A DNA stretch of 50,283 nucleotides, filler included, from Streblomastix strix (Eukaryota): the NCBI GenBank assembly GCA_008636045.1. It is 2 parts of 2 records of this genome, joined end to end, with 100 filler letters (N's around TTAATTAATTAA, not from the genome) between each part and the next. Parts side by side here need not be neighbours in the genome. Positions count along the whole stretch, not along the records: positions 25,199 to 50,283 come from SNRW01000212.1; 1 more part is not named here. One strand, 5' to 3'. Numbering within the stretch: position 1 is the first letter of the stretch; every line of letters begins with the position of its first letter. The position numbers and the translations under genes are program-made. Below are positions 8,226-44,566 of the stretch, piece after piece. The notes under the pieces were generated by a model, which saw only the letters and a program-made list of their open reading frames with translations, searched no databases and was not told the origin of the DNA.

Positions 8226-8871
8226 ATTTTAAATGGAGAATAAATGAAGATGAATAGTTTTAAAATGAAGATGAATGATAAGAAATGATGAAATATAAGG
8301 AATAATGATTGTTAGTATGAATAATGATTTGTTTGATATAGTGAATGGAAGATTGAAACGGGATATTTTTGTTGTTTTTATTATTAATTTGTTATATTGT
8401 TTGTTTTTGAGATTTGATCTTTTCATCTTCATTTTTGATATGGTAATATTTCATTCTTTCTATTCTTACTTATCTATTTGAAATTAACTCCTTTCTCTTT
8501 ACTCATTATATTTCTATTTAAATTTATGGTTAATTTACCCTGGTAATATCTATATGAGCGTATATATTATCAATAATGTAATAATTTGACTTAATCATTT
8601 CCAAAAAATTCTCATTCACTCATATAAAACCTTAATTATTCACTTTCACACAAGTAATGTTGACTAAGATTGTTTTTTTCATTCATATAAATTAATAAAT
8701 TCTCAGAAATACTAATAAAGTGGAATAACTAAAATGATGCTTAGTTTTTATTTTATTTTACATACTCAAAAACTAAATTAAAGTAATAAAAGTGTTTTTT
8801 AATCATAAAAGGAACAAACAATCAAATATAATGCATTATTAATTATATAAAATTCAATATAACATTTTGTA

Positions 8872-11390: not shown

Positions 11391-12016
11391 TCTATGACTT
11401 GACGAAACAAAAATATAGAAATTTAACATAAATATGAAGAAAAAAACAGATTTCTTTTTTGAAAATAAATTTTCATTGTCGTATAAAATAATGGAATTGT
11501 GACATTTTGAAAATATAATAGTTAAAATATTTATATATTGTTTATTTGAAGATAAAAATGTATTTTAAATTAATTTATTTATCTTTTCTATTGAAATAAT
11601 CAATAATCTTTGTAAATACATGAAAATATCCGTTAAGAAATTATATTAAGGTGTTTATTTATATTATTTATGTTGTAAATACATGTTTAGATCAAAATTA
11701 GTATTATAATAAAATAATAACTTCTAAAGGTGGAGTAATTTGAACAATAATAAAAAATTTTCCTTCTTCCTATAAGATAAGAAGTTTGAAAATTGTCCTA
11801 CATAATTAACCTATAACAATTAATTAATTAACAAACAAATTAAAAATAATGCAAATTTACTTGAATTTATATTTTTTTTATTGTGAATGAATTGCCCTCC
11901 TTGTTTTATTCTGAAAAAAAGCTCATTGGTGATGATATAAATGGATACTACTAAACAGTATTAATTCAATTGACACTCATAATAATCAAGTTTCGTTTTC
12001 ATGCTCATTCTCATTC

Positions 12017-22143: not shown

Positions 22144-23610
22144 TCATTTTGCATAAAGATTAAGCCAATCAACTTTGAATGGATCAAGTTCTTCTTTTCT
22201 CTCAATAACACGATCTGCATATTCTTTCTTTTTCATGCCAACTTGAGCTGTACGCTATGATTTTCTGCTATAATTCCATTAATCAATCTTTATAAATAAT
22301 ACAGTCCCAATCCCAGAAATTCGCTCAACCATCCTTTTAATGTCATCTTCATTTGATGTATGACTTATACCTTTAATGATCAGAGAAGAAAATTGCTAAT
22401 TTCCAGTAATGAAGTCAACCCTCAATTTATCCCTTCCAATGTTAGGGTTTTCTGAGTAAATTTTTTCAATATCAACAATTCCCGATTATACAAAGTCCGA
22501 ATCTTAGTAATAATGAACATTTGGATCATCCATTAAGATTTGAAATTGCTAATTCAGCAGATTCTTCCTCTGCAAATTCAAGAAAAATTATTTTTTCCTT
22601 GAATTTGTTTAACCTTAATATTGCTTTACTTAGTTTGCCATATAGAGAAAATACTTTGTAAACGTCTTCTATTTCATTGAAACGCTATATTGAACGTCCT
22701 TTTATGATAATATTTCTAGGTCCAGGTTAGATAAAATCTGAATTATATTTATTATTTTAGAAAAAATATTATAAATAAAAGTGAAAAGTAAATTATTTAT
22801 TAGTTTGAGTAATTATTAAATTCATACTTTGGTTTTCTCTNNNNNNNNNNNNNNNNNNNNNNNNNNNNNNNNNNNNNNNNNNNNNNNNNNNNNNNNNNNN
22901 NNNNNNNNNNNNNNNNNNNNNNNNNNNNNNNNNNNNNNNNTTCTAGGTCCAGGTTAGATAAAATCTGAATTATATTTATTATTTTAGAAAAAATATTATA
23001 AATAAAAGTGAAAAGTAAATTATTTATTAGTTTGAGTAATTATTAAATTCATACTTTGGTTTTCTCTTTATCTTCTTTTAGATTCTTTTTACTTTCGTTC
23101 AGCTTCTCTTTATCTATGTTCAGCTTCTCTTTACTCTCTTTCAGCTTACAATCTTATTCTTTCTCTTTCCCTTTCAGCTATTTATCTAACTCTTTCTTTT
23201 TCTTATTCTCTTTCTCTTTCAATCGTTTGTTTCATTAATTGTTCCATTAATTATTATCTTTCTCTTTCTCATATTTGTTCCAATAACCTTTACTTTTATC
23301 TCTATTATTCAATTAGTTTTTCTCGATCTTATTATTCTTTTTCTTTTAAATTTTGGTCATAAATAGTTCTTTTTTCTTTATCACTTAGATTTTCATATGC
23401 TTCAGCAATAATTTTGAAATTTTTGTTCGCTTACTCCCAATTGTCCAAATTATGGTCTAATATATCAAACACAAAAAGTAATTATTCATCAAGAAAATAA
23501 ATTGAAATATCCACACCAGGGTGGTATTTTAAAGCAAGCTTGTGGAAAGATTTTTTAATATCAATATCATCTGCATTGTTATTTACTCCAAGTATATTGT
23601 AATAATTCAT
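22144..23610 (-). CDS. J-domain (DnaJ/Hsp40 class C) protein with coiled coil and RRM-like domains; frameshift/premature TGA at 22526-22528; spans an assembly gap
   Basis: [32 protein letters not shown]...[21 protein letters not shown], with introns 23516-23457 and 23054-22965. RRM-like [11 protein letters not shown]...[22 protein letters not shown] second RRM-like segment [21 protein letters not shown] lies in a shifted frame ending at TGA 22144. Confidence 0.8.
22841..22940. other. Assembly gap (100 N) with 127-bp duplicated flanks
   Basis: 22714-22840 is identical to 22941-23067, consistent with an unmerged contig overlap. Confidence 0.9.
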
Positions 23611-25098: not shown

Positions 25099-25198
25099 NN
25101 NNNNNNNNNNNNNNNNNNNNNNNNNNNNNNNNNNNNNNNNNNTTAATTAATTAANNNNNNNNNNNNNNNNNNNNNNNNNNNNNNNNNNNNNNNNNNNN
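25099..25198. other. Assembly gap containing an artificial TTAATTAATTAA linker
   Basis: N-run with TTAATTAATTAA at 25143-25154, a standard six-frame-stop contig linker. Confidence 0.9.
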
Positions 25199-25230
25199 GA
25201 AATTTCGGAGGTAGCCTTTTTGGGCATGAC

Positions 25231-25267
25231 CCAAAAAATAAACAGAGGTGCAATCAACCTTTTTATT
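25231..25267 (+). promoter_or_regulatory. Element-specific conserved motif, copy 1
   Basis: CCAAAAAATAAACAGAGGTGCAATCAACCTTTTTATT, overlapping the hairpin TTTTTGGG-CATGA-CCCAAAAA (25217-25237). Function inferred, not shown. Confidence 0.55.
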
Positions 25268-25874
25268 GCTTTAATACTGTTTCAATATACATCTTAAATT
25301 ATACCTTATTTGTATCATAAGCTATCACATATTTACCTTATTCAATTAACTCCATATAAGTTAAATTCTCTTCGTTAAGGATCCAGATATTATAAGCTTC
25401 ATCAATGAAGTAATTATCTAGAGGGTGATTCTTATAGGATAATATATCAGTTATCTTATTTTTCATTTTATCTTAGGCTATTATACGTCCGTATTTTTTG
25501 GGGTTATACAATGTATAATGAAAATCATCAACCCATACCAAATTATGTACTGCGCAATTTTCAAGGTCATTATCCAAATGATATACCTTTGTATTTTTAT
25601 TAGGTACGAATTATTCAGCAACAAGTCTATCAAAGGCTAGCTCATGCCGCTTATTATTTTCATCAATTAACTATATTTACATTCCGATATAATATCCTGC
25701 TCTATTCTTTTTCGAATGAGGTTTAACTTCTCTATCTAATCTTGTATCCCATACCTCTAATGTTTTTTCATTGATTCTATATCTAGGAAAATCAGTTATC
25801 TCATCATAGTCTTATTTTTAGCTAATGACACGCGCTATTCTCTCATCGATTGTTTCTTTGGTTAAATAAGTCAT
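25254..25874 (-). CDS. NUMOD4/HNH-family protein, degenerate (206 aa)
   Basis: ITDFPRYRINEKTLEVWD...LAFDRLVAEQFVPNKNTKVYHLDNDLENCAVHNLVWV resembles the HRLVA..F.PN...V.H.D....NN...NL.W pattern of HNH_3 endonucleases, with substitutions. Confidence 0.7.
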
Positions 25875-25960
25875 TTGATATATGGATAAAAAAAAGGATA
25901 AAAAAATAAAAAAGGTTTTTCACACCCCACTTTTTTTTCTGATTTTTTATCTGGCTATAA

Positions 25961-26635
25961 ATGTAACAAATTGTACAAGACTAATAAATCTAACAAATTG
26001 TACCAGAATAATCCCCTACTAATGAAATGTAATAAGATATCTCTACTCATGAAAAATTGGACTAATAAATGTAATAATTTGTAACTCTATAAGATTTCCC
26101 TACTCATTAGATATCTACATAGCAACCATGGACCATTAGACGAATAGCTGATAAGGCCGTTAACAAAATATATAGAGAGAAAAGTGGTTACTAACAAGTC
26201 AGTATAAATGGAAAGACTATGGGTCTTCATCGACTTGTAGCTATATAATTTTTACCTACTAATGATAAAAATATGTAAGTCGATCATATCAATCATAATA
26301 GATCAGATAACTCAATTAGTAATCTTCGATGGTTGTCTCGAAGAGATAATTGTCTGAATAGAACGAAACCTTAACGATAACATATAACTTATAATTATCT
26401 AGATATATTACCTACTGATTATATTGAGCTAAGCTAATACAGAAGACATCAAATTGAAGGGTTATATTTCTCCCCTAGTGAAGATATGTTCTATATGTCA
26501 AATCGTATATAATATAAAGAGCTACATGTTAACGAAAAGATGAATGGTGCTTTGTTTGTTTATGCCCCTGATGTTAATGGCAAAGGTCATTAGATTCATT
26601 ACATAAGGGCTAAGAAAATTATGGAGCAAGAATGA
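25961..26635 (+). CDS. HNH endonuclease (224 aa)
   Basis: SGYQQVSINGKTMGLHRLVAIQFLPTNDKNMQVDHINHNRSDNSISNLRWLSRRDNCLNR is an intact HNH_3 motif. Alternative in-frame ATG at 26069. Confidence 0.9.
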
Positions 26636-26707
26636 AAAATAAGTTAACCTGCAAATTTGTTGATATCGATTAACACTGAGAGTATATGACATTATTTTTG
26701 CTCATAA

Positions 26708-28132
26708 ATGACCGCTCAAGGTATGTAAATATTATCTTCGTCATCAGAATAAGAATTTGTCTAATGGAAAACAACTATTCCATAGGGCTATAATTAGTTC
26801 TAAGTTAACAGAATATGTAATATCCCACTAAACCTCTGTTATTACTTAAACAAAGACTACATAGAAATTAAAACTGATATCAAGTCAACAGATAGTAAGA
26901 AAATAATGATACAAGAGCCCATATAAGGTGGCTTTAAATTAACACCAATTAACCAACTCCCACCAATAAGAATTAAATTGAACACTCATGTCATCAATAA
27001 TTATGTAGATAACGAAACACATTAATCCTATAAATTTCTGCCCACCAAATATGTACTTAAAAATAGTGATATAAATAGTTTCACTGATAGTCAAGAATAA
27101 CACTTTCATTAATTCGATACAACAAATGGTGGACCAATCAGCTTTAATTAATCAGACAATGAACATACTCAAAAATTAGGTAGTTATTACACTCTGTCAT
27201 AAAATAAAGGTGTTGATATATGTTCTGCTGCTATAAATTATATAAACCTTCGTCTCGATTGTTTACTATATCATTACTGGATATAAGATACTTAGTTGGC
27301 AATAGCTTATCGAATGATGGGGTTAATTAAAATATATTGTCCTACAACAGATAACTATATTACATCTGTTTAGCCATTAACATAGAGTATAAAAATTATC
27401 TATAACACTGGGTAATAAATTGCCTTGATAAATAATGAGCTAGTTACTACGGATTAATAGCCTATTAATGTACAGAGTTAAAGTTTATAATTAACCATCA
27501 ATTAGATCAACACATTTCCTATCCGCTTATTATTCTCATTGCCCGCCCTATCATTAGCAGAATGGTTATATATTTATACTTCATGTTAGAGAATATCAGA
27601 CCTTGGCTAATTTATCCCGTAAATCCTAGAGGAATTTTATGAAAAATAATTCGCAGTTCCGAATAAAGTGTTATAAATAGAGCTGTCAAATAATCTGTAT
27701 ATCTAATTCACTAATGCCAGCGATTTATATGTGGGATCAATAATCGATAACCATATCAAATAAATGACATTAGAAACATGGTATTATAAAGTTAAATTTA
27801 ACGGTGATGATTAATATTAAAGTTTACCAATATTTTCACCCTTCATCGGTAACTTCATGGAGTATCCACAAATGTTAATTGTAACAGTAAGTAATTAATA
27901 GAGGGGTGTATCATTATAAGCCTAAGATAACGCTGCCTTTAGCAACGTAGTATTTAAATAGAATTTGATTGGTGCGCCAGTTATATGGGGATAGAATATG
28001 TTATCTAATTCAAATATTATCGGGATGAATAAAGAAGTAGTATTTAAACTATACGATAATATGAGTAGATAAGTTCCAGTATAATATATGGATATATATA
28101 ATAATTTGCTGTTAGAAATATAATATTAATGA
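26708..28132 (+). CDS. Putative minor capsid (penton-like) protein (474 aa)
   Basis: Uninterrupted beta-rich ORF in table 6. The C-terminus EVVFKLYDNMSRQVPVQYMDIYNNLLLEIQYQ resembles the 'I.i.l.D..G..v......l.l.f' end of Polinton/virophage pentons. The ORF is solid; the product is inferred. Confidence 0.5.
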
Positions 28133-28180
28133 ACATCGCGGGTAACCCCAAAAATAACGATAAAATCAATTCTGTAATTT

Positions 28181-28210
28181 TAAAAGAGAGGTGCAATCTA
28201 CCTTTTTATT
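28181..28210 (+). promoter_or_regulatory. Element-specific conserved motif, copy 2
   Basis: TAAAAGAGAGGTGCAATCTACCTTTTTATT, with CCCAAAAATAACG about 30 bp upstream. Confidence 0.55.
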
Positions 28211-28215
28211 ATTTT

Positions 28216-28434
28216 TCATTTATTAAGATACTCCATTAATTTAAGTGCAGCCTGCTGATTATCTTCTTTCGCTATCTCAATTATCTCTTTCAATTAGTCC
28301 ATTCGCAACCTCCTGTTAAATTATCTCAATAAGAATCTCAGCTCAATCTCAGGATCAGCCTTTGTAGCTTATGACACCAATAACTATAAAAATTGACAGT
28401 TGCACATATATTCCTATACGCTTATTGCAATCAT
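28216..28434 (-). CDS. Small hypothetical element protein (72 aa)
   Basis: MIAISVQEYMCNCQFLQLLVSQATKADPEIELRFLLRQFNRRLRMDQLKEIIEIAKEDNQQAALKLMEYLNK-TGA fills the space between its neighbours. Confidence 0.6.
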
Positions 28435-28450
28435 TTTAAGAATAATAAAT

Positions 28451-29729
28451 ATGTCGAGTAAAACTAAACGTAAGAGTAAAAAATCATGGTCAGAAAGTTC
28501 AGACACTACTTATTCCGAGTAAAGAAAATAGATAAACACAGTAATTAATTTACCATAATTATAGTCAGCAAAATATAATTACTCCACCAAAGGAATGAGA
28601 TAAGGGAGAAAATTGCGATATATATATGAAAAATGAAAATAAAATTACAATACCCCACATATTGAGGAGTGATGGCGCTTATAATAACTTAAGAAATTAA
28701 TTTCTAACCTTAGATCCAACATTAGTCTTAAGTAATGAAGGCCTTAGGATATTCAAAAATTCAGTTAATAAATCAGATTGGGCACAAGCTAATAAATTAT
28801 TATACGGTCCTAATTGGAAAAATATAATTAACGACCAACATTTAATGAAAAAAATAGTCGCACATGATGATACACAATATCTAATAGAAGAACAATAAGA
28901 AACAATGGCTCTCATGAGAAAAGAAACAGAGGAGAATTTTAAGAGATTAGTGAAAGAAAATGAAGGGATAGATGACCCTCGATTTAGCACCATATAAACG
29001 TCATAGCCTGTACCGTAAGAACATCGTGTTTGCGACAGGATATCAGCCCCGTAAAATTAAATGGGTAGTATGGCACCACCACCTGATCCCGATACTCAAA
29101 TAAAAGAACTAGGTGAAGAAGCTCCAAAATAATATGAATAAATATTAAAAGAAACAGATGTAGAATAATAACCTTTTATATATCCTGCTGAAGAAGACGC
29201 ATTATAATAACCAATTTTTAACTAAGAATATAATTATACTACTAATCAACCTCCTTAATATATATAATCAGCACCAACACAGTAAAAATATGCTAATGAT
29301 TTTTCAGATATTTAGTCACTGAGAGATGAAGAATTAGGTGCTGTTAATTAAAATAGATACAAAAATAAATATGGCTAAATACCTTAATTAAGTGAATTTT
29401 AAAGATAACAAATGTAATAGATTAAATAGAATTATTAGATGGGTGAAAACTTATAAGAAGCTAACGATGAAGTAATAAATGGACTAAAATATCTAGTTGG
29501 ATCAACGGGATGGGGAAAATAACCAATTAACGCTTATTTCAATAGATAGCACTTTCCTGATAGAACGTTCTAATGGTATACGAACGAAGGATAGACAGTT
29601 CTACGGCAAGCTAAAGTTAAATTAAGTAAATAATAACTATTAAATATACCCGCTAAACGAAAGAATTATATAAAGACTAAGGATCTAGAAAAATCAATGA
29701 AAGCGCAAAAATAACTGAGAAAGAAATGA
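28451..29729 (+). CDS. Hypothetical element protein split by a frameshift in a (TA)n run (28451-28636 and 28626-29729)
   Basis: A 61-aa basic ORF (MSSKTKRKSKKSW...) overlaps a 367-aa ORF (MKNENKITIPHILRSDG...KAQKQLRKK). Adding one TA unit at 28619-28627 fuses them. Confidence 0.7.
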
Positions 29730-30113
29730 TCATTATTTTTACTCATCTTATTTGTTTGTTTATTAATTTTCACTTGTCATTTGTTTCCCAGTTTTATACT
29801 TATCTAGAATAGTCATCATACTATCTATATCATCATCATCAAGTATATATTTATTAATCATCTTTGCTATATCCAATTACTTTGCAGTTACATCCTTGCG
29901 AAATAATACCACTTTTTATCTCTGTCGCTATTTGAATTATTTACGCTGCTCTTTAGCTTTTTCTTTAGCCTCTTCAGTATTTAAATACTTCTTAGGTCGA
30001 CCCTTATTTTTAGGAGTTTCCTGTAGCACATTGTCAATGAGTTCTTTAATCTCTTTATCAACGGTTTCATTAATGATTTCCTCTATTTACTTTAATTATA
30101 TATTTTATTCCAT
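29730..30113 (-). CDS. AT-hook DNA-binding protein (127 aa)
   Basis: TPKNKGRPKKYLNTEEAKEKAKEQRKQFKQRQRQK: a GRP AT-hook followed by a basic helix. Confidence 0.75.
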
Positions 30114-30137
30114 GGTGTTTACTTTACCGTAAAAAAA

Positions 30138-31196
30138 TCATAAAAATTACTTCTTGTATTTATCTTCGAGTTAATCTATATCGTCAGAGATAAATTTAGC
30201 GTAGTATGTTGGAATCTCAACTTACTGTATATCTTTGTATGGTTTCAATAATTTACACACCACATTACCATGATTATATTTAATGAATGTTGCTAGCTCG
30301 TTAAATTATCTGCGTTACTTATCGAACTAGTGTTTTGTTTTGGACAAGTCTAAGTGGATTAAAATAATATTTCCTACCTTTAAATTAAGTAGTCCTCCTT
30401 TTCTTTGTAAATTAATCTTACCATCAACTTCTTATTATTTTTGTCGAATATAACTTCCTTCTAGATCTCTGGATTTATTAACTTATTCGGGTGTATATTT
30501 ATTATTAAAAGCAGCGTGTTTTGATTTGTTATATTCGGTTGCTATTTATTATATTATATGATTAGATACTTGCTAGTTGAGTAGTTTATTTCTTATATTA
30601 CGTATAACACTATCCACCACTCTATTTTAATTGGTAAATGGTGATTTATTATAGAAGTGTTATATATTGTTCGGTGCTAACAATGATTTAATTTATCTAC
30701 TACCAAACGATGCTTCACCATCTGATCTAATATTTGTCACGTACTAGGATTATATTAGCTGCTCTATCGCTGGTATTAACGATTGTATCTCTTTTGTGCG
30801 AATAGGATAAATAATAAGATACTTTGTATTAACGTTGATAATAAATAGATACATTAATTACTTGAAGAAGGCTATATCCATTTCCCATGAACCTAATTGA
30901 GGAGAAAAGTACGGGCGTTAATATTTAGCTAGCGGTTTTAATTTATAGTCCTTGATTTTTTCTGAGGGTTCATATTGACGTTGTATATGTTATGATTTTT
31001 CCTTCCGTTATTTCTACACGTTTTTCTCGTTATATTCCTCTACATATAATTTATACCATTACTCCAAAGATTTGCCTTTAAATTAATCTGGTTATTGTAA
31101 TGATTTATTAAACTAGTGGTTAACATTGTGAATGAATTCTTTTAGCGTTAATTTATTAATTAGCCTATTAACCTTATCGGTGATAAACATTTCCAT
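30138..31196 (-). CDS. Retroviral-type (rve) integrase, Polinton-like, D,D35D triad (352 aa)
   Basis: GSWEMDIAFFKQLMYLFIINVNTKYL...TNIRSDGEASF...NRVVDSVIRNIRNKL...EYNKSKHAAFNNKYTPEQV...LKVGNIILI. Confidence 0.9.
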
Positions 31197-31231
31197 TTAT
31201 AATGTCCCAAATTTACACACTAATTCAAAAA

Positions 31232-31268
31232 TATAAAAAGGCAGATTGCACCTCTGTTTATTTTTTGG
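31232..31268 (-). promoter_or_regulatory. Element-specific conserved motif, copy 3
   Basis: Minus strand CCAAAAAATAAACAGAGGTGCAATCTGCCTTTTTATA, about 35 bp upstream of the integrase ATG. Confidence 0.6.
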
Positions 31269-31360
31269 ATTTGCTCAAAATCAATGATTTGGGCGTTGAC
31301 CGAATTTCGGTTGACACTAAAAATAAGTCAAGGAACCATTTTTGGTTCCTAGCTATAAAA

Positions 31361-31570
31361 TCATCTTTCTATACGATATGATAATTATAATACTCTATCT
31401 AAATGTTATAATATTTCAGCTAATATATCAATCATCTTTTGGGGTACTTCTCTATTATAAGTATCAGGGAACCTTGTAGATTAATCACTATCTACTATTT
31501 TTAACGATTCTTAACTAGATAGTGTTGCTTCATAAACCTTTTTAATAGACTCGATATTATAACTGTTCAT
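31361..31570 (-). CDS. Small hypothetical element protein (69 aa)
   Basis: MNSYNIESIKKVYEATLSSQ...RIER-TGA, followed by the hairpin AGGAACCA-TTTT-TGGTTCCT (31331-31350). Confidence 0.55.
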
Positions 31571-31591
31571 TTTACTAAGAAATAAAAAAAA

Positions 31592-31846
31592 TCAATAAGT
31601 TGCAATAAGAGATATATAATTAATGTATTTAATTATCTCCTAACATTTATCACTCATTAGCTCATCTTCATCTTATACGTTTGCCTCTTAAATTATCCTC
31701 TCGCTATCCTCACCTTTAATCGGCTCTACTTACGCTTAGTATATATAATATATCTCTGTATTGTTTGCGTTAATTGATTTCCCTAATTTTATAGCTACTT
31801 ACAATAATTATTCCATTTGTGTAAAAATAAATTCAGCTAGTTTCAT
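31592..31846 (-). CDS. Small hypothetical element protein (84 aa)
   Basis: MKLAEFIFTQMEQLLQVAIKLGKSINANN...LIATY-TGA. An out-of-frame ATG at 31863 may be the original start. Confidence 0.55.
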
Positions 31847-31903
31847 CAAATAAATTATTCCATTTTTATTCCTTAGTAAAATTTTTTTATCTCCTTAGTA
31901 AAA

Positions 31904-32392
31904 ATGAGTCAATATCAAGATATATTAGCACCTTTTTCAATTGATACCGAAGTGCCCATCGATATTTTCTACTTAGATTAACTTAAATTAATCGATAAAT
32001 TAAAAATAACACATAACGAAAAATAAGCTAGGAAATATCATTCATATCTAACCCATTGGCTATATGAACTGTAAACGAAATATTTTATACAAGAGATCAA
32101 AATAAATCCAATAGAAAATTGCCTTAAATCAATAGCTATACGTAGTATATTATTCCCTGAGGGATAAGAATCAATTGAAGATGATAAAAATAAACGAGAA
32201 CAATAAATTAAACAGTATAACGAAAAATTATAATAAATAAGATCAAGGATGTAAAAATTAGATAATGATATAAAAAAGATCGATTAATTTATAAATGAAT
32301 ATTATAAAGATGGTAGTCCTATTATAAATGAATATGGAAATTATTGTATCTTTGATATTTTACTAGTAGATTCGAATGAGTATATTGATTGA
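31904..32392 (+). CDS. Hypothetical coiled-coil element protein (162 aa)
   Basis: MSQYQDILAPFSIDTEVPIDIFYLDQ...SNEYID-TGA, open in table 6. Confidence 0.7.
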
Positions 32393-32431
32393 TTTATCGT
32401 TAATGTACTTGTTCATCACATATATTATTTT

Positions 32432-34399
32432 TCATGGAGGAATTGATCCTAGAGTTATTGGCCTTGCTCTCCAACATATATTAGTACCATTGCTATAGAA
32501 TCCTCCATTAGTGTCAACGCTATTCACACCCCATAATATCGGATTACCTGCTGAGTAGTTAACTGAACCACCATTTGTTGCGCCAGTACCTGAGATAATT
32601 GATCCATTGAAAGATAATGTGTTTCCATCAGCTGAGATACGTAATCCTCTATTATCGTTTCTAAAATCTGATGTCAAACAAATTACAAATTCTTATGTCA
32701 TAGTATCTTATCTCATCATAATGCCAGCTGCCCATTAACCTTATATTTACCCGCTTTATTAAGTTGAATCACAACCAAATTATATTTAGCTTAATCCATT
32801 AGTTGCTTTTGCTATTCGGATTCCTTCATTATAATTTGTACCAGTTGGATTTACCTAGAACACATCAGCAAATATTTTTGTACCATTAATCGTTTGATCA
32901 GTTCCCACATTAACTAATTCATTACCATTGAATTTAATTTAGGTACATACATCATTAATTGACAGACCAACACTATGATCAGCTTATCGTAAAGATGATA
33001 AATTTATTGTTAGTGCTTTATCACTTGTTTTACTTATCTCCCATTAGCCCGCCTGAGTTGAATTTGTAGTTGTTTTTACGCACCCTAGATATAATGATGC
33101 TGTTGAATCACCATTATTATTATATCCGATTCTAATACCATTATTATACGCAGTATAATTTCGATCTAATGGATTAACCTGTAACATATCACCTATTATC
33201 CCACCATTACCTAAATTAAATGTCATTAGTATCTATGTTTATGTCCCTGTGATTGATGAAACAATATCCTGCGTTAATATCTCTGTAACTCGAGTAGGCC
33301 AATATGTACCTTATTTACTTACAGAAACAGTTACCATTCCACTACCAGACATCATATGAATCCAAGCAGTATATACAGCAGAAGAATATGACCCTGTATG
33401 AGTATGTAATAGTTAATCAGCTCCATAATAAACATTCTATATAGTTTATACGTAAGATGGCGCAGTAAATACCCCATATAAAGCAACAATTCCATTAACG
33501 GTATAATAAGGTAACAAGTCAATAGTTTACATAGCGTTTGTATTACATTATACCTAGAATTATATATATGGAGCTCCTGTACTTGTTCCTGTAGGAAATA
33601 CACATAATCTAATATATCCACCTGTTCCGCTGTTGTAAGTTCTAGAAATTTTGTTATCTATAGTAGTTGTATCTCCATTCGCTAATAGTGTTTAAGTTGC
33701 TGTTCCACCTGTCATAATAAATTTAGTCGCTGTTATATCGTTATCGTATGTTAATTATTGAGGGTGTACATGATCTCCACGACTATATGAAGTACTAACA
33801 CCAGCTGCTGCTGTACCATTAATTATAGGTAGCTCGTCGCTAGCTGGTGTAACTTAATCAGGTACTAATTATCCACTATCATACCACTCTGACTCATACA
33901 TCCAAACAGTACCACTCTCTGCGCTAAAGGCAAAGTCACATGTACTTGATGCTGGTAAATTAACTATATCTGCGTTAATTAAGTAATAGCCTCTGAAATG
34001 AGTCTGTCGAGCTAGCTCTTGTTATATTTATGTTATTGATTAATTTATGTTAACTATATCTGCTGATGTTATACCCTATTCTTGTTATAGTTAGTTTACC
34101 TAGTTATTTAACTGGTTAATTTAAGTTATAAAATCGAAGTTAATGACATTGAGATCGTGAACGATTAATTGACCGTTAGTCTTTATTTTTAACGCGAAGT
34201 TGCTTGCTATTCCCTAATTTATATATTACTTATCTGCGTAAACTAATGATGATTCGTTATCAATGAAAAGCTAATAAGTATCATTAAACAAAGCTGCTGA
34301 TGAACTACTTTTATTCTTCACATATTATAAATAATACTATATCTATGTTGAAATTAGTTGATTAATGATTGATCGTTATTAGCTGGATAGTGCGGTCAT
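32432..34399 (-). CDS. Fibre/spike-like virion protein (655 aa)
   Basis: Coiled-coil N-terminal part, a phage tail-fibre-like motif GTAAAGVSTSYSRGDHVHP, and G/T/N-rich repeated modules (QVNPLDRNYTAYNNGIRIG; QVNPTGTNYNEGIRIA; NRGLRIS). Joins the track ORFs 33044-33226 and 32432-32677 in one frame. Confidence 0.7.
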
Positions 34400-34425
34400 T
34401 TATAATTAATAATAGTGTGGTAAAT

Positions 34426-34458
34426 TAAAAAAGGTTAGTTGCACCTCTGTTTTATTCG
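34426..34458 (-). promoter_or_regulatory. Element-specific conserved motif, copy 4
   Basis: Minus strand CCGAATAAAACAGAGGTGCAACTAACCTTTTTT, about 27 bp upstream of the fibre ATG. Confidence 0.6.
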
Positions 34459-34508
34459 GATAGGGAATCGATTTATTCGAGAATAGGGCTTCAAAGTTAT
34501 TATACCCA

Positions 34509-35054
34509 AGTAGTTAAGGATCTGAGAAACTTGTACTAATGTGAGATATGATATATCATTAAATTAAGGCGACCTGACAGTCCAACGGGGTATAAATATT
34601 CAAAACGTGTGAATTATGATGAAAAATAGCGACCATAATCTCTAAACATTCCTTCCTCTTCATTAGCTCCGTGGATTCATGGACATAAATATTCATTTTC
34701 GTTTGTTTCTTGGAGTAATATATTCATTTTTCATAGGGATAAAAAATACGAGTACTTATTTTCATTAGTATAAAGATAAAAAAATTGCTTGTTTTTCGTT
34801 TATTTCACCCAAAAAATAACGTTTTTAGTGTTTTTGGGGTGAAAATAATTAAAAATAAGACAAAATTATACTTAATATATACCCGATCGATAACGTGAAT
34901 TGCGAAACAGGTGAAAATAACTATTTTACCTCGCTATTTTTCATCATAATTCACACGTTTTGAATATTTATACCCCGTTGGACTGTCAGGTCGCCTTAAT
35001 TTAATGATATATCATATCTCACATTAGTACAAGTTTCTCAGATCCTTAACTACT
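34509..35054. repeat. 124-bp perfect inverted repeat (34509-34632 / 34931-35054) with 298-bp spacer at the element terminus
   Basis: AGTAGTTAAGGATCTGAGAAAC...GAAAAATAGCGA is the exact reverse complement of TCGCTATTTTTC...GATCCTTAACTACT. Confidence 0.95.
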
Positions 35055-36064
35055 CTCCTGATGAAGGATCAACAGTATCTATTCTTATAGAAGGTGATCC
35101 ATAAAGTTTGCAAACTGCATCATTTGGAATGAAAGACATTTCATGGTTCGACTTTGATAATAAACATTATGGTGTATTTGTATCAAATGATGGAAGAATA
35201 TTCACTGGTATTGATGGAAGATAAGATTAAGCATATCCATTGAAAATTAAAATCGAAAAGATGATATTGAATATGAATAAGGTGATATCAAATAAGAATA
35301 TGATATTCAAAATCATTATCTTATTTAGTGGATTATTCTTATTATTGTTTTATTTTCAATTATTCTAATAATAATAATTATTATTTTAATTTGATGCATA
35401 TTTTTTTTGCTGGAAAAATTAAAAATACGAAAAAAATATTGAAATCGACTATTTTACTGAAATGAATTATTAAAACAGTAGAAACTTGACAGAAATGAAT
35501 CAAATAGTTGAAGAACCAGCAAATAATCACGACTCTAAGAATATTTAATTGTATGTCAAATCAATCTCAAATATATAATAAACTTATCCTCATTTATATT
35601 AAATTAAACATTAATCAGAGCATAATGAATCTAAATAATATAAATCTGATTAATCGTCTTGTTCAATTCAAATTAGACACTCTTCTAATATTATACCAAT
35701 TGTTTTTAATGCTAGTTAAAATTCAAGTACTATAGTTCTTGTGAGCAATTCAAATTCAAAATAACCAGAGAATAATTAAATAAACGAATCTCTCGTTCAT
35801 TCATCTTCAGGATATTTATCAGGACATCCTGCAAATACTTCTTCTTCAAAGTCACTTGATCTTTCTTAAAGCACACCACTAATTCAGATTCATGAGCCTT
35901 ATCCGCAATATATTGATCCTTCTTTACATTGGGTATAATAAAATTAATTATAAGGTTCAGAGAAAGATTTTGATCCTCCATTAAAGAAAAATCCTCCTAT
36001 TTATTCTGAAGTAGAACAATCACATAATATTAATGATGAAGAGCAATAAATTATTATTGATTGA
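35055..36064 (+). pseudogene. 3' remnant of a beta-helix-family type I membrane protein gene, truncated by the viral element
   Basis: PDEGSTVSILIEGDPQSLQTASFGMKDISWFDFDNKHYGVFVSNDGRIFTGIDG matches ATFAMKDKQFLNYKQKQYGALISNDRRFFTGSDG of the 37757-43911 gene. The TM segment is frameshifted. The tail ends at TGA 36062-64. Confidence 0.75.
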
Positions 36065-37756: not shown

Positions 37757-40700
37757 TCAAAGTTTTGTTTATGGATTCATTCGATCCATTTCTTATTCAT
37801 TTCCAGATTCTTTCGATTTATTTGATTAATATTCAATTGATTCCTTTTGAATTTGCTTCATTTCATTAACTTGAACGTTCATTGTTGAATGTCTTAAAGC
37901 AAATTATTATTAGGCGCTATTATAATTATCAGAAAATTTTTCAGTGTCATTTGTACTAGAATAAGTTGTTTGAACATTTTGAGAAGATAATGAAAGTTAA
38001 GAAATTGGTAATGATTATACAGAATTTGATGGGAATTAGAATTATTTCAGTTCTATTTGTAATTTAGATGAGGAAGATGAAGTTAAATTGGATTATGAAG
38101 AAGAGGATGATTAATCATAAGACGAAGTAAACATTGATGATTATAATTCTTTTTATTTTTTCTATTAATTCAGTTTTAATTCTGAATTGTTACGAATTCT
38201 TTGAAGTTCGTTTGAATCATTCAATATTCTTTCTAATACATCATTTGAAGTTTGATTACTTTTATGAGTTTATTTGATTATCTCAAAATCATCTTTTATT
38301 TGTTTTATTTTTTTATTTAAATCTTTATCTTTATTCTTTTTCTTCCATAAGCAGCAGTAGCAAATGAAACAGCATCCAATTGTAATTATAACAGCTAGCA
38401 CAACCAAACCAATCAAAAGTCCAATCCACCAGGCAAACTTTGATTTTTATGGAGGATCAGTTAATTTTTCTTCAGTATCAAATACAACTTCTACTTCAAG
38501 TAATACAGTTCGGCCTTCAATTCCATCAGATCCGGTGAAGAATCTACGATCATTTGATATTAATGCTCCATATTATTTCTATTTATAATTTAGGAATTGT
38601 TTATCTTTCATTGCAAATGTAGCTAATTATTCATCTTATTAGTCAACAATGTTGATTGGATCAGTTGTTTAATCTAATGGAGGATAAATAAACTCATTTA
38701 ATTCATTTCTTAATTAATTATTATCAGTAAAATTCTTATTAAAAGAGATGATTGATTTCAAGATGGAAAAAGGAGATTGTTTTTGAATTTAATATAAGTT
38801 TATGTGAATTATTTCCTTATTTTATTGATTTTATTATAATATTTGTCCTTCTGATGTTTTATCACCAATTTCAATTATTTTTGCATTCAGATTTCCTTGT
38901 TTCATATTCTTTCCAACAAGTTGATATTTGAATGGTTCATCTACATTTCTGAAGTCAACCACAACTTTGGCAGTTCTCAGACTTGCAATTATTGTCCAAT
39001 AATATTGAAGAGATTTTTATTCTTATGATATTTATTCTGGAGTAAACTAAATAAATGTTGAAATATTTGTTGCAATTCCTTCAACATCACTTAAATTAGA
39101 TAATTTATCATCATAATCTCCTTTTACTAAAGAACCTTCATCATATTGGCAAAACTCTTCTAATTAAGGCATTACTATATAAACATTATTTCCTCCATTA
39201 TCTGCTGAATTTGAATCTGATTTCATTCCACTCAAGTCAATCTAATCTGATTCAACATCATAATCTCCAGTTCCAGTCAGAAATATAACTCCTCCATATC
39301 CCGAGGGTGGAATTTCAACTGAATTATGTTTTAAAGCTTTGTTATGACGAAAAGAAGCATCTTTGATCTTGAATTAGAAATTCTTTGAATAATCTATATC
39401 AACATATATCGCTCCTCCATTCCCAGATTCAATCACACAATCATTGAATTCACAACTATCATCAATAATCAATGAACAATCTTCTCTGATTTCTGCATAA
39501 ATGGCAGATCCTCCTTATCCAGATTCTTCTCCTGTTGAATTGATATTATTGAATTGCGTTGCTTCAATTGTTGCATCAAATGAGTTTTCTTAATCATTCT
39601 CTATTCGAATTGCACTACCTCCTTCTCCTTAAATAGTTATGTCTTCAAATATACAATCAGATATTATAAGTTCAGTATTATCAACATCTACATGAATTAT
39701 TCCTTTTGGATCATCAGATGGAGAAAGATTAATATCAGAGAATGTAACTGAATCAAGTTCAAGGTTTGTATTTTAATCTTCAATGTAAATGATTGGAATG
39801 TTGAGTTTTGATTTATCAGTGATGAATTTGATGAAATAAAACTTCAGTTCAATTCCTCCTGATGCTAATATCCATCCTTTATGTCCATTCTCAATATTTG
39901 AAGTATCACCTCCTTTAATAATCTTGATTTCTGCTTTTCCTTCCATATTATACTTTGTCATATATAATTATTTCATTATCTTAATTATATTCGTATAAGT
40001 GTTACTTTTGTTGAATTATATTGGAGATGTTAAATCATATCCTTCTTCACAAATACCAATTCTCTTCTCAGGAATTACTGAAGTTAGTATTCCTCCTAAT
40101 TCAAATGATATTTACTATAATGCATAATTAATTGAATAACATGGGTTACTATATTCAGCGCATCCTGGTTAATTATTTCCTTTAATTGTTCCTTCATTTC
40201 GATTAAGGATATGCCATATTGTTCTCCACCATAATTCAAGCGGTCTTTAATCTTTTATTATATTAACTTAAGAAAGGCTATTGAAATTACTATATTCAAC
40301 TGGTATTCCTTCAAGTTCACTTTCATCAGAATCAATATCACTATAATTTCCTTTCACATATTCTCCTGATATTCCTTTTCTGCACCATTCAATTACATTG
40401 GGCATTGCAACATACAAACTTTATCCAGCTTTATCTGCAGAATTATCATACATCTTCATCTTACTAAAATCAAGCATCTTAGATGATACATCGTATACTC
40501 CAGTTCCTGCGATAAAGATTCCGCCCCCAAATCCAGATTATGAATATTAATAATCAGTACTAATAAGAGCTTAACATTCTTGTATTATTATGTCTTTTAT
40601 TTCGATGGATGATTATAATTCAAAGTTGATACTTAGATACATCGCACCTCCATTTCTACTTTTGCAATTGACGAATTCTAGCTTATTCTCAAATGATAAT

Positions 40701-43700
40701 TGTGATTTTGAAATTTCTAAGTACAGTCCACCTCCTTAATATGAGCTTGAACAATTATCAAATGAAATTTCTCCAGTAATTTGTATTTCTGTTTCTATGT
40801 TAGATAAGAACATATACATTCCACCTCCTGATGTGCCAGTACAATTCTGGAATATTATTGAGCTCGATATAACAGAAATAATCTAAAATGAATAAATTGA
40901 TAATCCACCTCCTTAACTTCCAATACAATCAATAAATTTCATTTCTCCAGTTATTTGAATTTATCCTTGCTAATTTGAATAAATATACATTCCACCACCA
41001 TTCCCCGAACATGAGCAATCTTCAAAGACTATATTACCTGTTATTTGAACCTAAAATGGATGTCTATAAAAGTTTAATAATATTCCTCCTCCATCACCGT
41101 CGAATGAAGAACAATTCAAGAATTTGCATTGATTAGACATTATGATTTAATTACTAGCAAACGATGTAATAACTAATCCTCCTCCTCTTGATGCGCTACA
41201 ATCAATAAAGTTCATGACACCCAAAAATTGAATATCACAGTCCTATTCTTAACAATCAATATATAATCCACCTCCAGCAAAACGTGAACTTTCACATCTA
41301 ATGAAATCTGCCTAATTCTTTATTATCAAATGCGGACTGACACCTAGTTGCATATTCACTCCACCACCTTATATAGCTTTACAATCCTTGCAAATTATTT
41401 TATTAATTTCTAGTGTCGATTCATCATATAATCCAAAAAATGCTGCTCCGCCAGAACCCTCAATACTAGAACAATTATCAAACTCTATTAATCCAGCAAC
41501 TTTAATTAGTTTCCCAGAGGTAATGCACCAAGCTCTTAAACCTCCACTAATTTAATAACACGAGCAGTTCTGGAATAAGCAATCTCCTTCAAAGATCAAC
41601 GATGCACCATTTCTGATTGATGCATAAATACAACCACCGTTATTCTAGTGACTGTAACACGAATCGAATTTAATACCATCGCCAATAATTAGTAAGCAGT
41701 TCTCACCATCAAGATCGGCTAAAATAGACCCTCCACCTTATAGTGTTGTTATACCACATTAAATAAACTAACATTTTCCATCTATTTTTACTGAACTTCC
41801 ACTGTTAATACTTGTATAGATTGTACTTCCTAAATCTGTTTAACACTAATAAAACTCTGAATTAATGATTAATACTTATGCTTAGTTTGATGCTACGATT
41901 CGATATACGCCACCTTAACCAATATCATACTAGATATTGGAGAATAAGCAATTGGATATTAAGACTTCATCAGATTCTTGATTGACGACAATATATATTA
42001 AGTCGTTGTAATTTGGATATTCAAAATCGTCGGTATTGATTATATTTTGAAACAAGCAATCGTTAATAGTTGCATTATGTTCTATGCTAACTACTCTTGT
42101 CTAAATAGTCTTTTCTTGAAATTCAAACACTTCAATATTTAATTATCCATTTCCTTATTTACTTATTAATCTGAAATTTGTTTGTGAATTTGTAACTGTG
42201 CAATCTATTATTTCTATATTGGAATTATCACCTCCTTATGAAATAACAGATAATGAACTTCCTAAATAATTGAAATTTATGTTGTTGAAGATAACTTTTC
42301 CGGTATTTAATTCATCAATGAAATCTCCATTGATAATCAATTGTTTTCTCTCTTACTACGATTTAATCTCTCTAACAGTACCTATTTTGCCAAGATTAAT
42401 AGCAGAATTGAGTGTGTATGTGCCTGTGAGTATTATAGTATAATCTCCAGGATCAGAATTTATGTACAACTATGGTTCTCCATATTGTAAGAACTTACAA
42501 CTTGGACCTACATTGTCAGTATCTCTAACACAATCAACACTGGGATTAACCTAATTATCTTATCCTTCATTATTTAAGTAAATATAATCAGCGTTTGTAT
42601 CTAAGAAGTGGAACTAACTCATTAACATCAAGTATGCGAGAAAGATGATAATTCTTTTATTATTCTTTTTATTCTATTGATGTTACGATTATTATGAATG
42701 TATTAATTAATCTGAAATCAAGTAATAGACGAATTTGCAAATAAGAATTGTGATTATAATTATGTGGAGTAATAGATCCGATTGTCTGAAACGTTTGCTT
42801 ATTATATTATTCTTATATATATTAGTACCTGATTAATCAACGTACTAACTTTCTTCTCCATTATTACTCATTGAGGTATGACTGATGTTTGAAGGTATAA
42901 TAATTGAGGATGACGTTTTCAATTATATACTTTGTATGGGTTTATGAGATATAGCTAAGATGAATGTCAACACTAAGAACATAAGAACAATACCAAGTGT
43001 GCTGAATGTAGAATAATCCATTATTTTTCTTCTAGAGGAGGAAATATCTTAATCTTCTTATTCAGGATTAGTACTTTTCTAATTCTATGTTATTGGAAGA
43101 AATTCTGTTTATTGACTAGATTCTTATTCAATTCTACATTCCTTATTCTCTTCTTCATTAATTTCATTTCCAATTATTTTTTTTTATTATTTATTCTATT
43201 TAACTATATTAAATTCATTTTATTCTTCAATATTTTCAATTGTGTAATTCTCAGGAATAATCCGAACATATGGAAGAAAAAGATTGGAGAGTGATTGTGT
43301 GTTAATTATTGGGTATGATATTGCATGAGGAGTTATAATTACCACCTTTTCTTTGATATTTGAATTATATATGCATTTGCGTAATTCAGAGAGATGATTT
43401 CCTTAATCAACTTCAAGATAAACGATTATATCAGATTCTCTATTTCGGCATTGATATAAAGATTAAGAACATATTGATGTGAAATTCGAAATGTTTGAAG
43501 CATTTGCATCGACAAACGGATTAATCACAGCTTCAGAAAGAAGTTTCTCTTTGTTCTTAGAGAGATGTTCTAGCGTTGGATTGAATTCAGCATCTTAGCC
43601 AGTAACACATATATCAGGATGTGTGAAGATAGTTGCAAAGTGTATCAACTCGCAAGCATGAATAGTGACTTTTATCAGCAAATGTTAGTCATCTAATTTT

Positions 43701-43911
43701 GATTGAATAACAAAAAGATAAAATTAAAGAAAAATAAAAAATTAGTTAATTGCTGATAAATAACAAATAATAAAAAGCAAATAACATATATATGTAAATT
43801 TAAAAAATGAACGTTTTAAATTTATCATATAAGTACACCAGAAACAGTCTGAAGGCGCACAATTCGGCTGGATTTAATGTTTTCGAAGTAATGCGGCAAA
43901 TTTGACATCAT
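37757..43911 (-). CDS. ~2000-aa membrane protein: NYN/PIN-like N-terminus, hydrophobic segments, polymorphic-membrane-protein-like right-handed beta-helix, TM helix, S/Q-rich tail (exons 43911-43839, 43692-37757)
   Basis: Many FxxC...GG[AG][ILVM]Y repeats at 39200-42000. TM segment WWIGLLIGLVVLAVIITIGCCFICYCCLW. I translated 43692-42240 and 38440-37757 by hand in one frame; the middle was spot-checked only. The start codon is uncertain. Confidence 0.75.
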
Positions 43912-44231
43912 TATCCAAGAAAAGCGTTTGTAGAAGTTCAATAAAAGTGTTGATGCATCTTATTTTTGCATGAGTAAGCACTATAAAATATTTACGCTCT
44001 GGGCTGTAGGTTAAAAACTAATCCTTTGCAAAAGCGCAATATTGCCAAAGAAGAGCTAGATATTTCCAGAATTTCTGAATTGAAAACTTATAAAATTTTA
44101 ATTCTAAACGAATGCAAAAAGTATTTTACCTCATAGTGACCTGTATCGTGGAATATGGAGGTAACAAAATTAATTGAAATTTTGAAACTGTATAATAATA
44201 TTAAATTTAATTCAAAATATTTAATTAATTT

Positions 44232-44566
44232 TAGGGTTGCATGAAAATCCACGGAAATTGCGCGGATTCCGCGAATTTATTTGGACTCCGCGGAAATTTT
44301 AATTGAGACCCCATAAAAAATTAAAAAAAAATATTTTTTGAAAAATTTCATTTTTAAGTTTTAACTAAAATTAATCAAAAAATATATAAAATTTTTTGAT
44401 GAGTAATGTGAAAAGGAAAATAGAAGGAAAAATCAAAAAATTGAATAATTACACTCGAATTCGAATAAAATGATATAACTATTTAATAGCCTCATCTAAG
44501 CTTTCCGCGAATTTCGCGGAAACCGATCGCGGATTGAAAATTTTCATATTTTTTCATGCAGCCCTA
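44232..44566. mobile_element. hAT-type MITE (335 bp)
   Basis: TIRs TAGGGTTGCATGAAAA / TTTTCATGCAGCCCTA (15/16 match), an exact 8-bp TSD ATTAATTT (44224-31, 44567-74), and multiple subterminal CCGCG/CGCGGA motifs. Confidence 0.92.

Follow-up and report, generated by a model that had tools for sequence, protein, structure and literature searches.

A probable Maverick/Polinton-type DNA virus copy readable only in the reassigned genetic code of a Streblomastix-like host

Introduction

What kind of element occupies positions 25199–35054 of a 50,283-nt stretch of Streblomastix strix DNA (hereafter, the window), and in which genetic code can its genes be read? It was originally predicted to be a young, lineage-restricted Polinton-like endogenous virus, written in the translation table 6 code of its host (TAA/TAG = Gln). 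Bellas et al. (2023; PMC10120064) reported 820 MCPs in S. strix and viruses using the host code, so the code match between recoded virus and host in this species is already published. The Metamonada (MMN) Maverick-Polintons of that study include endogenous viruses of S. strix and parabasalids, and a 2026 preprint (10.64898/2026.06.19.733378) still leaves the Metamonada group unplaced among virus groups. For the S. strix elements, the accessible portion of PMC10120064 describes neither a gene map nor an integrase or penton, and likewise no terminus or motif. We conclude that the 9.9 kb segment is likely the right part of an integrated Metamonada-group Maverick/Polinton-type DNA virus copy in a Streblomastix-like oxymonad of the termite gut, readable only with TAA/TAG as Gln.

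Results

Recoded gene block

Eleven ORFs of 61–655 aa and one of 28 aa were detected within 25254–34399 (Table 1). All twelve start with ATG, end with TGA and carry in-frame TAA/TAG (9, 22, 42, 5, 35, 12, 26, 4, 7, 9, 43 and 1 per ORF), and translation in table 6, proposed as a check, left every ORF uninterrupted. The eleven longer ORFs cover 90% of 25199–34508 and, as read from the DNA sequence, are each uninterrupted and compactly arranged. The predicted set of about twelve intronless, packed ORFs was recovered as eleven plus one doubtful ORF. With table 11, no stop-free frame in the element exceeded 121 aa, and no ORF of at least 100 aa was present among those listed for the element.

TAA/TAG account for 78% of the Gln codons of the element, and the large host gene at 37757–44314 shares this code. 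Opposite TAA/TAG in seven non-NCBI integrase homologs, Q was the joint commonest residue (20/117, 17%; background 4.7%), tied with K (20/117; background 8.2%). In 200 mononucleotide shuffles read in table 6, the mean number of ORFs of at least 340 aa was 0.29 (maximum 3), compared with four observed. Since long frames arise readily under table 6, the case for the gene block must be carried by homology.

Table 1. Features of the element and its borders, in window coordinates
Feature	Position	Strand	Remarks
Spacer N44-TTAATTAATTAA-N44	25099–25198	.	Element cut here; left part, left TIR and TSD missing
21-nt motif AGAGGTGCAAYYWRCCTTTTT, copy 1	25244–25264	+	Overlaps HNH1 stop
HNH1, HNH endonuclease-like, divergent, 206 aa	25254–25874	-	Pfam and PHROGs
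HNH2, HNH endonuclease, 224 aa	25961–26635	+	Pfam HNH_3, E 3e-14
ORF474, probable penton (minor capsid protein), large insertion	26708–28132	+	Homologs; motifs by eye
21-nt motif, copy 2	28187–28207	+	Between convergent ORFs
28-aa ORF, doubtful	28216–28302	-	
61-aa basic ORF	28451–28636	+	15 K+R, 4 D+E; no family
367-aa ORF	28626–29729	+	Q-rich, basic tail; no family
127-aa protein, AT-hook-like GRP motif	29730–30113	-	Conserved neighbour in relatives
rve-type integrase, 352 aa	30138–31196	-	D107-D159-D195 (DD35D)
21-nt motif, copy 3	31235–31255	-	Ends 39 nt ahead of integrase ATG
69-aa ORF	31361–31570	-	No family
84-aa ORF	31592–31846	-	No family
162-aa ORF	31904–32392	+	Coiled-coil stretch; no family
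655-aa G/T/S/N-rich protein, candidate fibre	32432–34399	-	
21-nt motif, copy 4	34428–34448	-	Ends 29 nt ahead of 655-aa ORF ATG
Inner arm, 124-bp inverted terminus copy	34509–34632	+	Starts AGTAGT
Outer arm and right terminus	34931–35054	-	Ends ACTACT; (AGT)2 Maverick end motif
Host flank	35055–35254	+	Begins within coding frame of paralog of host gene 37757–44314

Integrase, HNH and AT-hook-like genes

The predicted integrase was supported by 24 homologs, some of which are named integrase catalytic domain, by its DD35D triad and by a Pfam rve match (E 4.9e-5) that falls short of the curated cut-off. The third catalytic residue is D, unlike the E usually carried by rve integrases. Besides the window integrase, 14 of the other 27 sequences in the tree have the D-D-35-D spacing, and every one of the 24 rows in integrase alignment A2 has D as its third residue; we found no earlier description of this triad. 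Searches with the integrase alignment in viral_contigs gave no confirmed match, and PDB sequence searches with alignments A2 and A3 gave nothing significant.

Both predicted HNH genes were likewise recovered, HNH2 with the stronger match (Table 1) and HNH1 with E 0.002 in Pfam and 1.7e-8 in PHROGs. A homolog of HNH2 adjoins the integrase in the standard-code contigs L005 and L003. The 127-aa ORF shares the integrase frame and lies one TGA and eight codons behind it; the GRP motif of the predicted AT-hook gene is present, but Pfam made no AT-hook call. Programmed read-through from the integrase into this ORF is disfavoured, being clean only in gene model P0017; other fused models skip the junction, resembling predicted introns. 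A T-rich motif, moreover, occurs upstream of other ATGs as well.

ORF474, the remaining ORFs and the 21-nt motif

ORF474 is probably a penton with a large insertion, as judged from its sequence. When compared by eye with a published penton alignment, the N-terminal strands, insertion helix, PQ strand and C-terminus matched. Of the original penton-like claim, these motifs stand, while the jelly-roll fold was not recovered: two AlphaFold models were of low quality (pLDDT 35 and 46), and no match came from any of three Foldseek searches or from a VIA search. In Atlas, the homolog P0077 pointed to Sputnik V18/19 (score 0.87, rank 4), which we treat as a lead only, and P0001 returned sub-chance aspartic-protease rows alone. 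Viral contigs and metagenome contigs each yielded a single locus for P0077; both were the same phi29-like phage and were rejected as false. In G001, the set of standard-code contigs described below, no homolog of ORF474 was detected, and hhalign of ORF474 against a small penton candidate from that set was not significant. In the S. strix gene model P0004, the ORF474 C-terminus is fused to a stretch matching G001 pPolB frames (best E 1.5e-25); P0004 itself gave nothing significant in a PDB sequence search and no match in a phage tblastn.

The 655-aa protein is possibly a fibre. The fibre-like prediction found no database backing, a weak coiled-coil match at residues 94–131 being the sole match and Pfam, PHROGs, PDB sequences, viral_contigs and phage tblastn yielding none. 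As to the adenovirus-like cysteine protease of Maverick/Polinton-type viruses, Pfam detected no protease family in the eight large ORFs.

The 21-nt motif occurs four times in the window, each time inside the element, against 0.02 copies expected, and is most likely a common promoter or terminator signal. A hairpin terminator at the motif is not established, as only a weak hairpin was detected (z -1.0 to -1.9, forward strand). The motif had no match in viral_contigs, and we found no earlier description of this element-specific sequence.

Ends of the element and junction with the host

The end motif sought was (AGT)2 or (AG)3, (AGT)2 being the Maverick end motif according to the sections available of PMC8097293. 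The right end reads ACTACT at 35049–35054, the reverse complement of AGTAGT, and thus carries (AGT)2. This end abuts an interrupted host gene: the 200-bp flank matches the large host gene at 21 of 53 aa (E 5e-12), and its first six bases after 35054, CTCCTG, are the expected TSD. No terminal direct repeats were detected at the visible end, and the terminal 25-mer had no match in viral_contigs.

The inner and outer arms are 100% identical over 124 bp, with the inner arm facing inward. We found no earlier description of such an inner inverted terminus copy, and the original prediction did not mention it. A standalone MITE at 34509–35054 is disfavoured, since this 546-bp unit lacks a TSD (TACCCA vs CTCCTG).

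On the left, position 25199 is the edge of a spacer, which we take to be an artificial contig linker, and no element end, a point on which the prediction was silent. The window contains neither a left TIR and TSD nor genes for MCP, pPolB and ATPase; because these three genes are absent from it, autonomy of the Streblomastix copy is not demonstrated. Their absence from 9.9 kb would suit a non-autonomous or capsid-incomplete Polinton derivative. Such a derivative would still have the integrase, penton and accessory genes but no longer MCP or pPolB, and would depend on helper copies for copying or packaging. Differing gene orders and divergent termini between copies on the read contigs point the same way, and rearrangement may have left behind the terminal 546-bp unit. 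However, on the left the sequence stops at a break in the assembly, eleven of eleven ORFs are intact, and published elements are generally 15–30 kb as given in the accessible portion of PMC10120064, which leaves space for the missing genes. We therefore consider such a derivative improbable.

Slightly less probable again is an assembly chimera, in which the link between host DNA and a free virus, or several copies, would be an artefact of amplification or of repeat collapse, as would the inner arm. Among contigs of run X1, 4113 aligned (896 at 99% identity or more, 1359 at 95–99% and 1858 at 90–95%), and these thousands of short variants include none that spans the stretch. The spacers, the complete identity of both arms and 127 bp duplicated on either side of the gap at 22841–22940 also suit a chimera. 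Against it, the junction coincides with the end of ACTACT and leads into the coding frame of a host gene, and the inner arm opens precisely with AGTAGT. The inner orientation of the arm is also seen in one X1 contig (34454 joined to 34526), which is weak evidence with 26 letters on the short side. The recoded viral genes would be real even in a chimera.

Relatives, distribution of codes and age

The integrase profile gave 26 matches in G001, and PF03175 gave 12 matches there (five above the cut-off) and none in 14 control genomes. We examined 12 G001 contigs, chosen for having matches. The integrase was present on eight of them, accompanied by pPolB on seven, MCP on three and ATPase on two; contig L041 carries all four. 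The G001 MCP agrees by eye with the S. strix MCP of Bellas Table S3 in five ordered motifs. A Walker A protein adjoins the integrase on L041 and L047 (best Pfam match ATPase_2, E 0.018); the Pox_A32 profile found no match in G001, and the G001 ATPase gave nothing significant against PDB sequences. The whole pPolB frame of L044 matched no Pfam family. No eukaryotic 18S was detected in G001, the sole match of 1495 nt being of bacterial length.

Because the integrase family shares G001 contigs with pPolB, ATPase and Metamonada-type MCP, the element is best read as Polinton-type rather than LTR- or Ginger-like, as predicted, in the table 6 code of its host. A Ginger- or LTR-related integrase transposon with captured HNH and other genes and no virion is very improbable: family matches among the element ORFs are confined to the integrase and HNH genes (Pfam, PHROGs) and the ORF474 folds gave no capsid fold, yet Pfam detected no reverse transcriptase or gag family in the eight large ORFs, terminal direct repeats are absent at the visible end, pPolB adjoins the integrase family as above and the end is (AGT)2.

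The nearest named homologs of the element are S. strix proteins (33–62% identity). Of five listed sequencing runs with a share of at least 0.1, three were termite-gut DNA, in which many variants of the element occur. Restriction to one lineage holds for the recoded copies but not for the family: integrase relatives at 32–40% identity use the standard code, with TAA and TAG as stops and related HNH and AT-hook-like neighbours, so the family must have passed from one code to the other on one or more occasions. The S. strix integrases are mostly 34–57% identical to that of the window, which argues for long residence. Accordingly, "young" fits the present copy at best, in view of its intact ORFs; the family, with X1 variants at 90–99% as well, is old and diverse. 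In the best integrase tree, built without LTR or Ginger references, the 13 table 6 integrases fell into two groups and were united in 0% of 200 bootstrap trees, while a single table 6 clade was not rejected by the AU test (p 0.225).

Discussion

For the preferred Maverick/Polinton-type virus, related contigs suggest that the missing left part would carry pPolB, a packaging ATPase and MCP. The integrase may insert the linear genome via its AGTAGT ends, and pPolB would copy excised genomes by protein priming. Particles would be assembled from MCP and ORF474 as the penton, probably together with a fibre, with all genes presumably translated by host ribosomes and Gln-tRNAs. During a long stay in an AT-rich table 6 host, Gln codons may have drifted to TAA/TAG, so that the lineage would no longer be expressible in a standard-code cell.

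We also considered, as a rather unlikely extension, that the family hops between gut protists of differing codes and was recoded repeatedly, the lineage of the window integrase and the main one of S. strix having each entered the table 6 host on its own from standard-code stock. Such a family would also rely on a DD35D integrase, on a promoter or terminator motif peculiar to it and on a terminal 546-bp unit whose identical arms might let it fold, invert or excise as a mini-element.

Viruses that adopt the reassigned code of their host, and are unreadable elsewhere, allow code change to be tested as an infection barrier. Capsid genes had already revealed the code match in S. strix. What the present locus contributes is a gene map and an integration junction, together with standard-code relatives through which the family extends over both codes. 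Entry of a standard-code virus into a table 6 host should be easy, as a gene would run beyond TAA/TAG to the next TGA, whereas the reverse entry should be barred. Repeated recoding, if true, would amount to an experiment, run several times by nature, in how a eukaryotic DNA virus gets across a genetic-code barrier.

Tetrahymena thermophila reads TAA/TAG as Gln, like the Streblomastix host. Its Tlr element is also integrated and, in the accessible portions of PMC4028283 and PMC5499653, has an rve integrase, a penton, MCP and ATPase, the penton C-terminus resembling that of ORF474 by eye; Tlr has an SF1 helicase in place of the pPolB found in relatives of the Streblomastix element. Vertebrate Mavericks, in the sections available of PMC8097293, share intronless genes, an rve integrase and (AGT)2//(ACT)2 ends with the element. 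Unlike it, they use the standard code and have eight conserved core genes, and those sections do not mention an inner inverted end copy for them. The relatives of the element carry a Metamonada-type MCP, unlike the virophages, and no helper giant virus is known for the element. In the virophages mavirus and Sputnik (PMC6048507), the penton is a single jelly roll with an insertion domain, to which ORF474 (474 aa, vs 303 aa for the mavirus penton) is likened by its motifs, and mavirus has one promoter motif ahead of its genes, comparable to the 21-nt motif of the element.

Gene content and genetic code of the element

Under table 6 (TAA and TAG read as Gln), the gene block contained eleven ORFs of 61–655 aa and one of 28 aa, all twelve with an ATG start, a TGA end and in-frame TAA/TAG, in agreement with the original prediction of about 12 packed ORFs with this reading. 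The eleven ORFs accounted for 8365 of 9310 bases, and the longest frame in the element under table 11 (standard stops) was 121 aa. Long frames are cheap under table 6 in AT-rich DNA, and weight was therefore put on homology; mononucleotide shuffles (n=200) gave a mean of 0.29 and a maximum of 3 ORFs of ≥340 aa, compared with 4 observed. TAA/TAG made up 198 of 253 Gln codons (78%) in the eight largest ORFs, versus 81 of 117 (69%) for a portion of the adjacent host gene (Fisher p 0.07). At the 18 integrase positions encoded by TAA/TAG in the region of residues 90–345, Q was seen in 20 of 117 cases among seven non-NCBI homologs (background 4.7%) and K also in 20 of 117 (background 8.2%). GC made up 29.5% of the element and 26% of its flanks. 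In every ORF, the first in-frame TAA/TAG fell within the first 28 codons, and these genes would therefore fail in a standard-code cell. The element is genuine: a truncated copy, intact in appearance, of an endogenous virus of a known kind, with recoded genes, an integrase triad, an end motif, a host junction and many variants demonstrated here.

Coordinates of the element and of neighbouring features in the window
Feature	Position	Strand	Remark
62-nt inverted repeat	20178-20239/21098-21159		85% complementarity; 858-nt spacing, enclosing DNA of slightly higher GC; perhaps a small non-autonomous DNA transposon
127-bp direct repeat	22714-22840, 22941-23067		identical copies flanking the 100-N gap; probably a scaffolding overlap
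Host DnaJ-domain gene	23269-23610	-	two Pfam stretches, apparently with an intron
Element	25199-35054
Recoded gene block	25254-34399
HNH1	25254-25874	-	206 aa
Interval with GGGGTGTGAAAAACCTTTTT	25875-25960		variant of the 21-nt motif between divergent HNH genes, ~36 nt before the HNH1 ATG
HNH2	25961-26635	+	224 aa
ORF474	26708-28132	+	474 aa, penton candidate
Integrase	30138-31196	-	352 aa
655-aa ORF	32432-34399	-
546-bp terminal unit	34509-35054		two 124-bp arms
Inner 124-bp arm	34509-34632
Interrupted host paralog	35055		cut by the element
Host gene	37757-44314	-	very large; cysteine/glycine-rich repeats; C-terminal membrane segment; no significant Pfam family
33-nt tandem repeats	45968-46099

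Ends of the element and the 21-nt motif

The left edge of the element was the spacer N44-TTAATTAATTAA-N44, which we take to be an artificial join, and no left TIR was found within the window. The right end reads ACTACT, bearing out the predicted AGTAGT-type end, and matches the Maverick motif (AGT)2//(ACT)2 as given in the available part of its source (PMC8097293). Immediately past this end the sequence enters a host coding frame, that of a paralog of the large host gene (identity 21 of 53 aa, E 5e-12), as an insertion would. The terminal 124 bp were repeated, inward-facing and 100% identical, at the inner side of the 546-bp unit, and no TSD was found around the unit bounded by these two arms. 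The unit may be a compound terminus, what is left of a mini-element, or an artefact of assembly.

The motif AGAGGTGCAAYYWRCCTTTTT occurred in four copies in the window, all inside the element (0.02 expected). Two copies ended 39 and 29 nt upstream of an ATG, a variant read contig (joint 25263-26689, short side 23 letters) carried one ~45 nt before ORF474, and two lay directly behind stops on the other strand; folding was weak. By analogy with mavirus, where the accessible text describes one motif preceding all genes (PMC6048507), a promoter would be our first guess for AGAGGTGCAAYYWRCCTTTTT, and a terminator the second. Two other ATGs were preceded by a T-run and then CTTAGTAAA.

Integrase and accessory genes

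The predicted integrase carried the triad D107, D159 and D195, with 35 residues separating the last two. The third catalytic residue is usually E; D195 was invariant in 24 of 24 aligned rows. Both predicted HNH genes were recovered, HNH2 clear and HNH1 divergent. The AT-hook assignment stood in part: the 127-aa ORF, in frame behind the integrase with one TGA between and fused to it in eight S. strix gene models, had a GRP motif, and Pfam made no AT-hook call. The fibre-like 655-aa ORF had no match in any database searched; the putative label 'fibre' rests on composition and position.

The integrase tree kept 28 of 35 rows, those spanning the core, and its 13 table-6 rows split in two: the integrase of the window with P0005 (87/61, weak), and 11 others (100/99). 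Bootstrap trees uniting both groups numbered 0 of 200, and the AU test did not reject one table-6 clade (p 0.225). As references for LTR, Ginger, Trichomonas and mavirus integrases were lacking from the tree, the LTR/Ginger question was judged from the neighbouring genes rather than from phylogeny.

ORF474 as a penton candidate

An ORF474 profile searched against 1.84 billion representatives gave 52 matches, mostly short fragments, and all six fragments looked up were from S. strix; it also found two distant 700-aa proteins, P0077 and P0078. AlphaFold models of ORF474 reached pLDDT 35 with 17 alignment rows and 46 with 40. For P0077, the Atlas listed at rank 4 a Sputnik minor-capsid V18/19 cluster (0.87), no more than a lead, and its structural comparison a 303-aa Preplasmiviricota protein (aligned residues 16-702, listed TM 0.49); P0001 gave sub-chance rows only. 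As to the penton-like gene of the original prediction, four features agreed in order, by eye, with the published alignment. Searches of the poor models with Foldseek (two viral, one PDB) and with VIA matched nothing. Virophage pentons have a comparable insertion, placed between their strands D and E (PMC6048507). Comparison by hhalign of ORF474 with a small penton candidate of the bacterial record G001 was not significant. Overall, ORF474 is quite likely a penton.

Penton features compared by eye (available part of PMC4028283)
Feature	Sequences compared
Three N-terminal strands	ORF474 and published alignment
Insertion helix	Sputnik TFLQMINTAL; P0077 QFIQYINMHL; ORF474 SAAINYINLRL
PQ strand	Tlr SPQTILI; ORF474 YPQMLIV
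C-terminal end	Tlr QLYKNDGQ...SFQYE; ORF474 KLYDNMSRQ...EIQYQ

Standard-code relatives in a bacterial genome record

The integrase alignment search led to three contigs in G001, which resemble DNA of a eukaryotic virus assembled together with that of the bacterium; within G001 there were 26 integrase, 12 pPolB and 24 small-penton-candidate matches. Locus L005 was in standard code, its six genes ending TAA, TAA, TAG, TAG, TGA and TAA with no internal TAA/TAG, and carried homologs of the integrase (40%), HNH2 (28%) and the AT-hook-like ORF (32% over 56 aa, E 4e-4) as well as two long beta-rich ORFs. PF03175 was detected at 12 places in G001, five over the cut-off, and in none of 14 control genomes. 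Among 12 contigs chosen for having hits, eight bore an integrase, accompanied by pPolB in seven, MCP in three and ATPase in two; L041 bore all four. The G001 MCP shared five ordered motifs, by eye, with the S. strix MCP in the available Table S3 of Bellas et al. In the S. strix model P0004, the end of an ORF474 homolog was fused to a region matching G001 pPolB frames (17 matches, best E 1.5e-25), a link between penton candidate and pPolB within the table-6 host. On the opposing side, neither an ORF474 homolog nor a Pox_A32 match was found in G001, and the whole L044 pPolB frame matched no Pfam family.

G001 holds dozens of standard-code Polinton-type contigs (loci L003-L062; L041 = C35, L044 = C55, L051 = C107), probably DNA of a eukaryotic host or virus assembled along with the bacterium; the record offers Metamonada-group genomes and at the same time signals contamination. 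Contig ends were identical in L045 (1-94/5907-6000) and L050 (1-122/4413-4534), which are therefore circular or tandem. On L045 there are pPolB and part of an ATPase, with AGTAGT inside the repeated end, and on L042 several pPolB frames on both strands with one integrase and a RING-finger-like ORF.

Host and copy variants

All named homologs of ORF474 and the integrase were from S. strix, which supplied 4 of 4 ORF474 matches in one search, 13 of 14 in another, and 17 of 24 integrase homologs, the other seven being metagenome proteins. Identity to S. strix homologs was mostly 33–62%, with one fragment at 88%. Four of the five matching sequencing runs listed were termite-gut DNA, and in the four runs compared the greater part of the stretch was covered by contigs. 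The contigs of run X1 numbered 4113 (896 at ≥99%, 1359 at 95–99% and 1858 at 90–95% identity). Its summed depth, which is no copy number, was 359–15,320 in gene bins versus 194 and 13 in two host-flank bins; X1 shares its sample with X2 and could itself be the source. The read contigs point to a large family of variants.

Mechanism and comparison with known systems

From Polinton biology, integration would proceed via AGTAGT ends with a 6-bp TSD, replication would be protein-primed, and the capsid would be built of MCP and penton. Recoding most likely arose by AT-biased drift of CAA/CAG to TAA/TAG inside a host reading both as Gln. In the accessible part of PMC13002328, the table-6 code is assigned to S. 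strix and to one or more unidentified oxymonads, other oxymonad families being standard. Use of the host code by such viruses is already published: in the available text of Bellas et al. 2023 (PMC10120064), a Metamonada MCP group including S. strix is defined, 820 MCPs are counted in S. strix, and its EVEs use the host's translation table. The S. strix contigs of that study may already include this element family. In the available parts of two preprints, the Metamonada group is left unplaced (2026; 10.64898/2026.06.19.733378) and only Trichomonas is mentioned (10.64898/2026.10.13.758929). A literature search by title, with most subscription papers outside its scope, returned no title on a DD35D Polinton integrase, the 21-nt motif or the inner arm. 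Tetrahymena, too, is a table-6 host. Its Tlr element is an older case of this kind (PMC5499653, PMC4028283).
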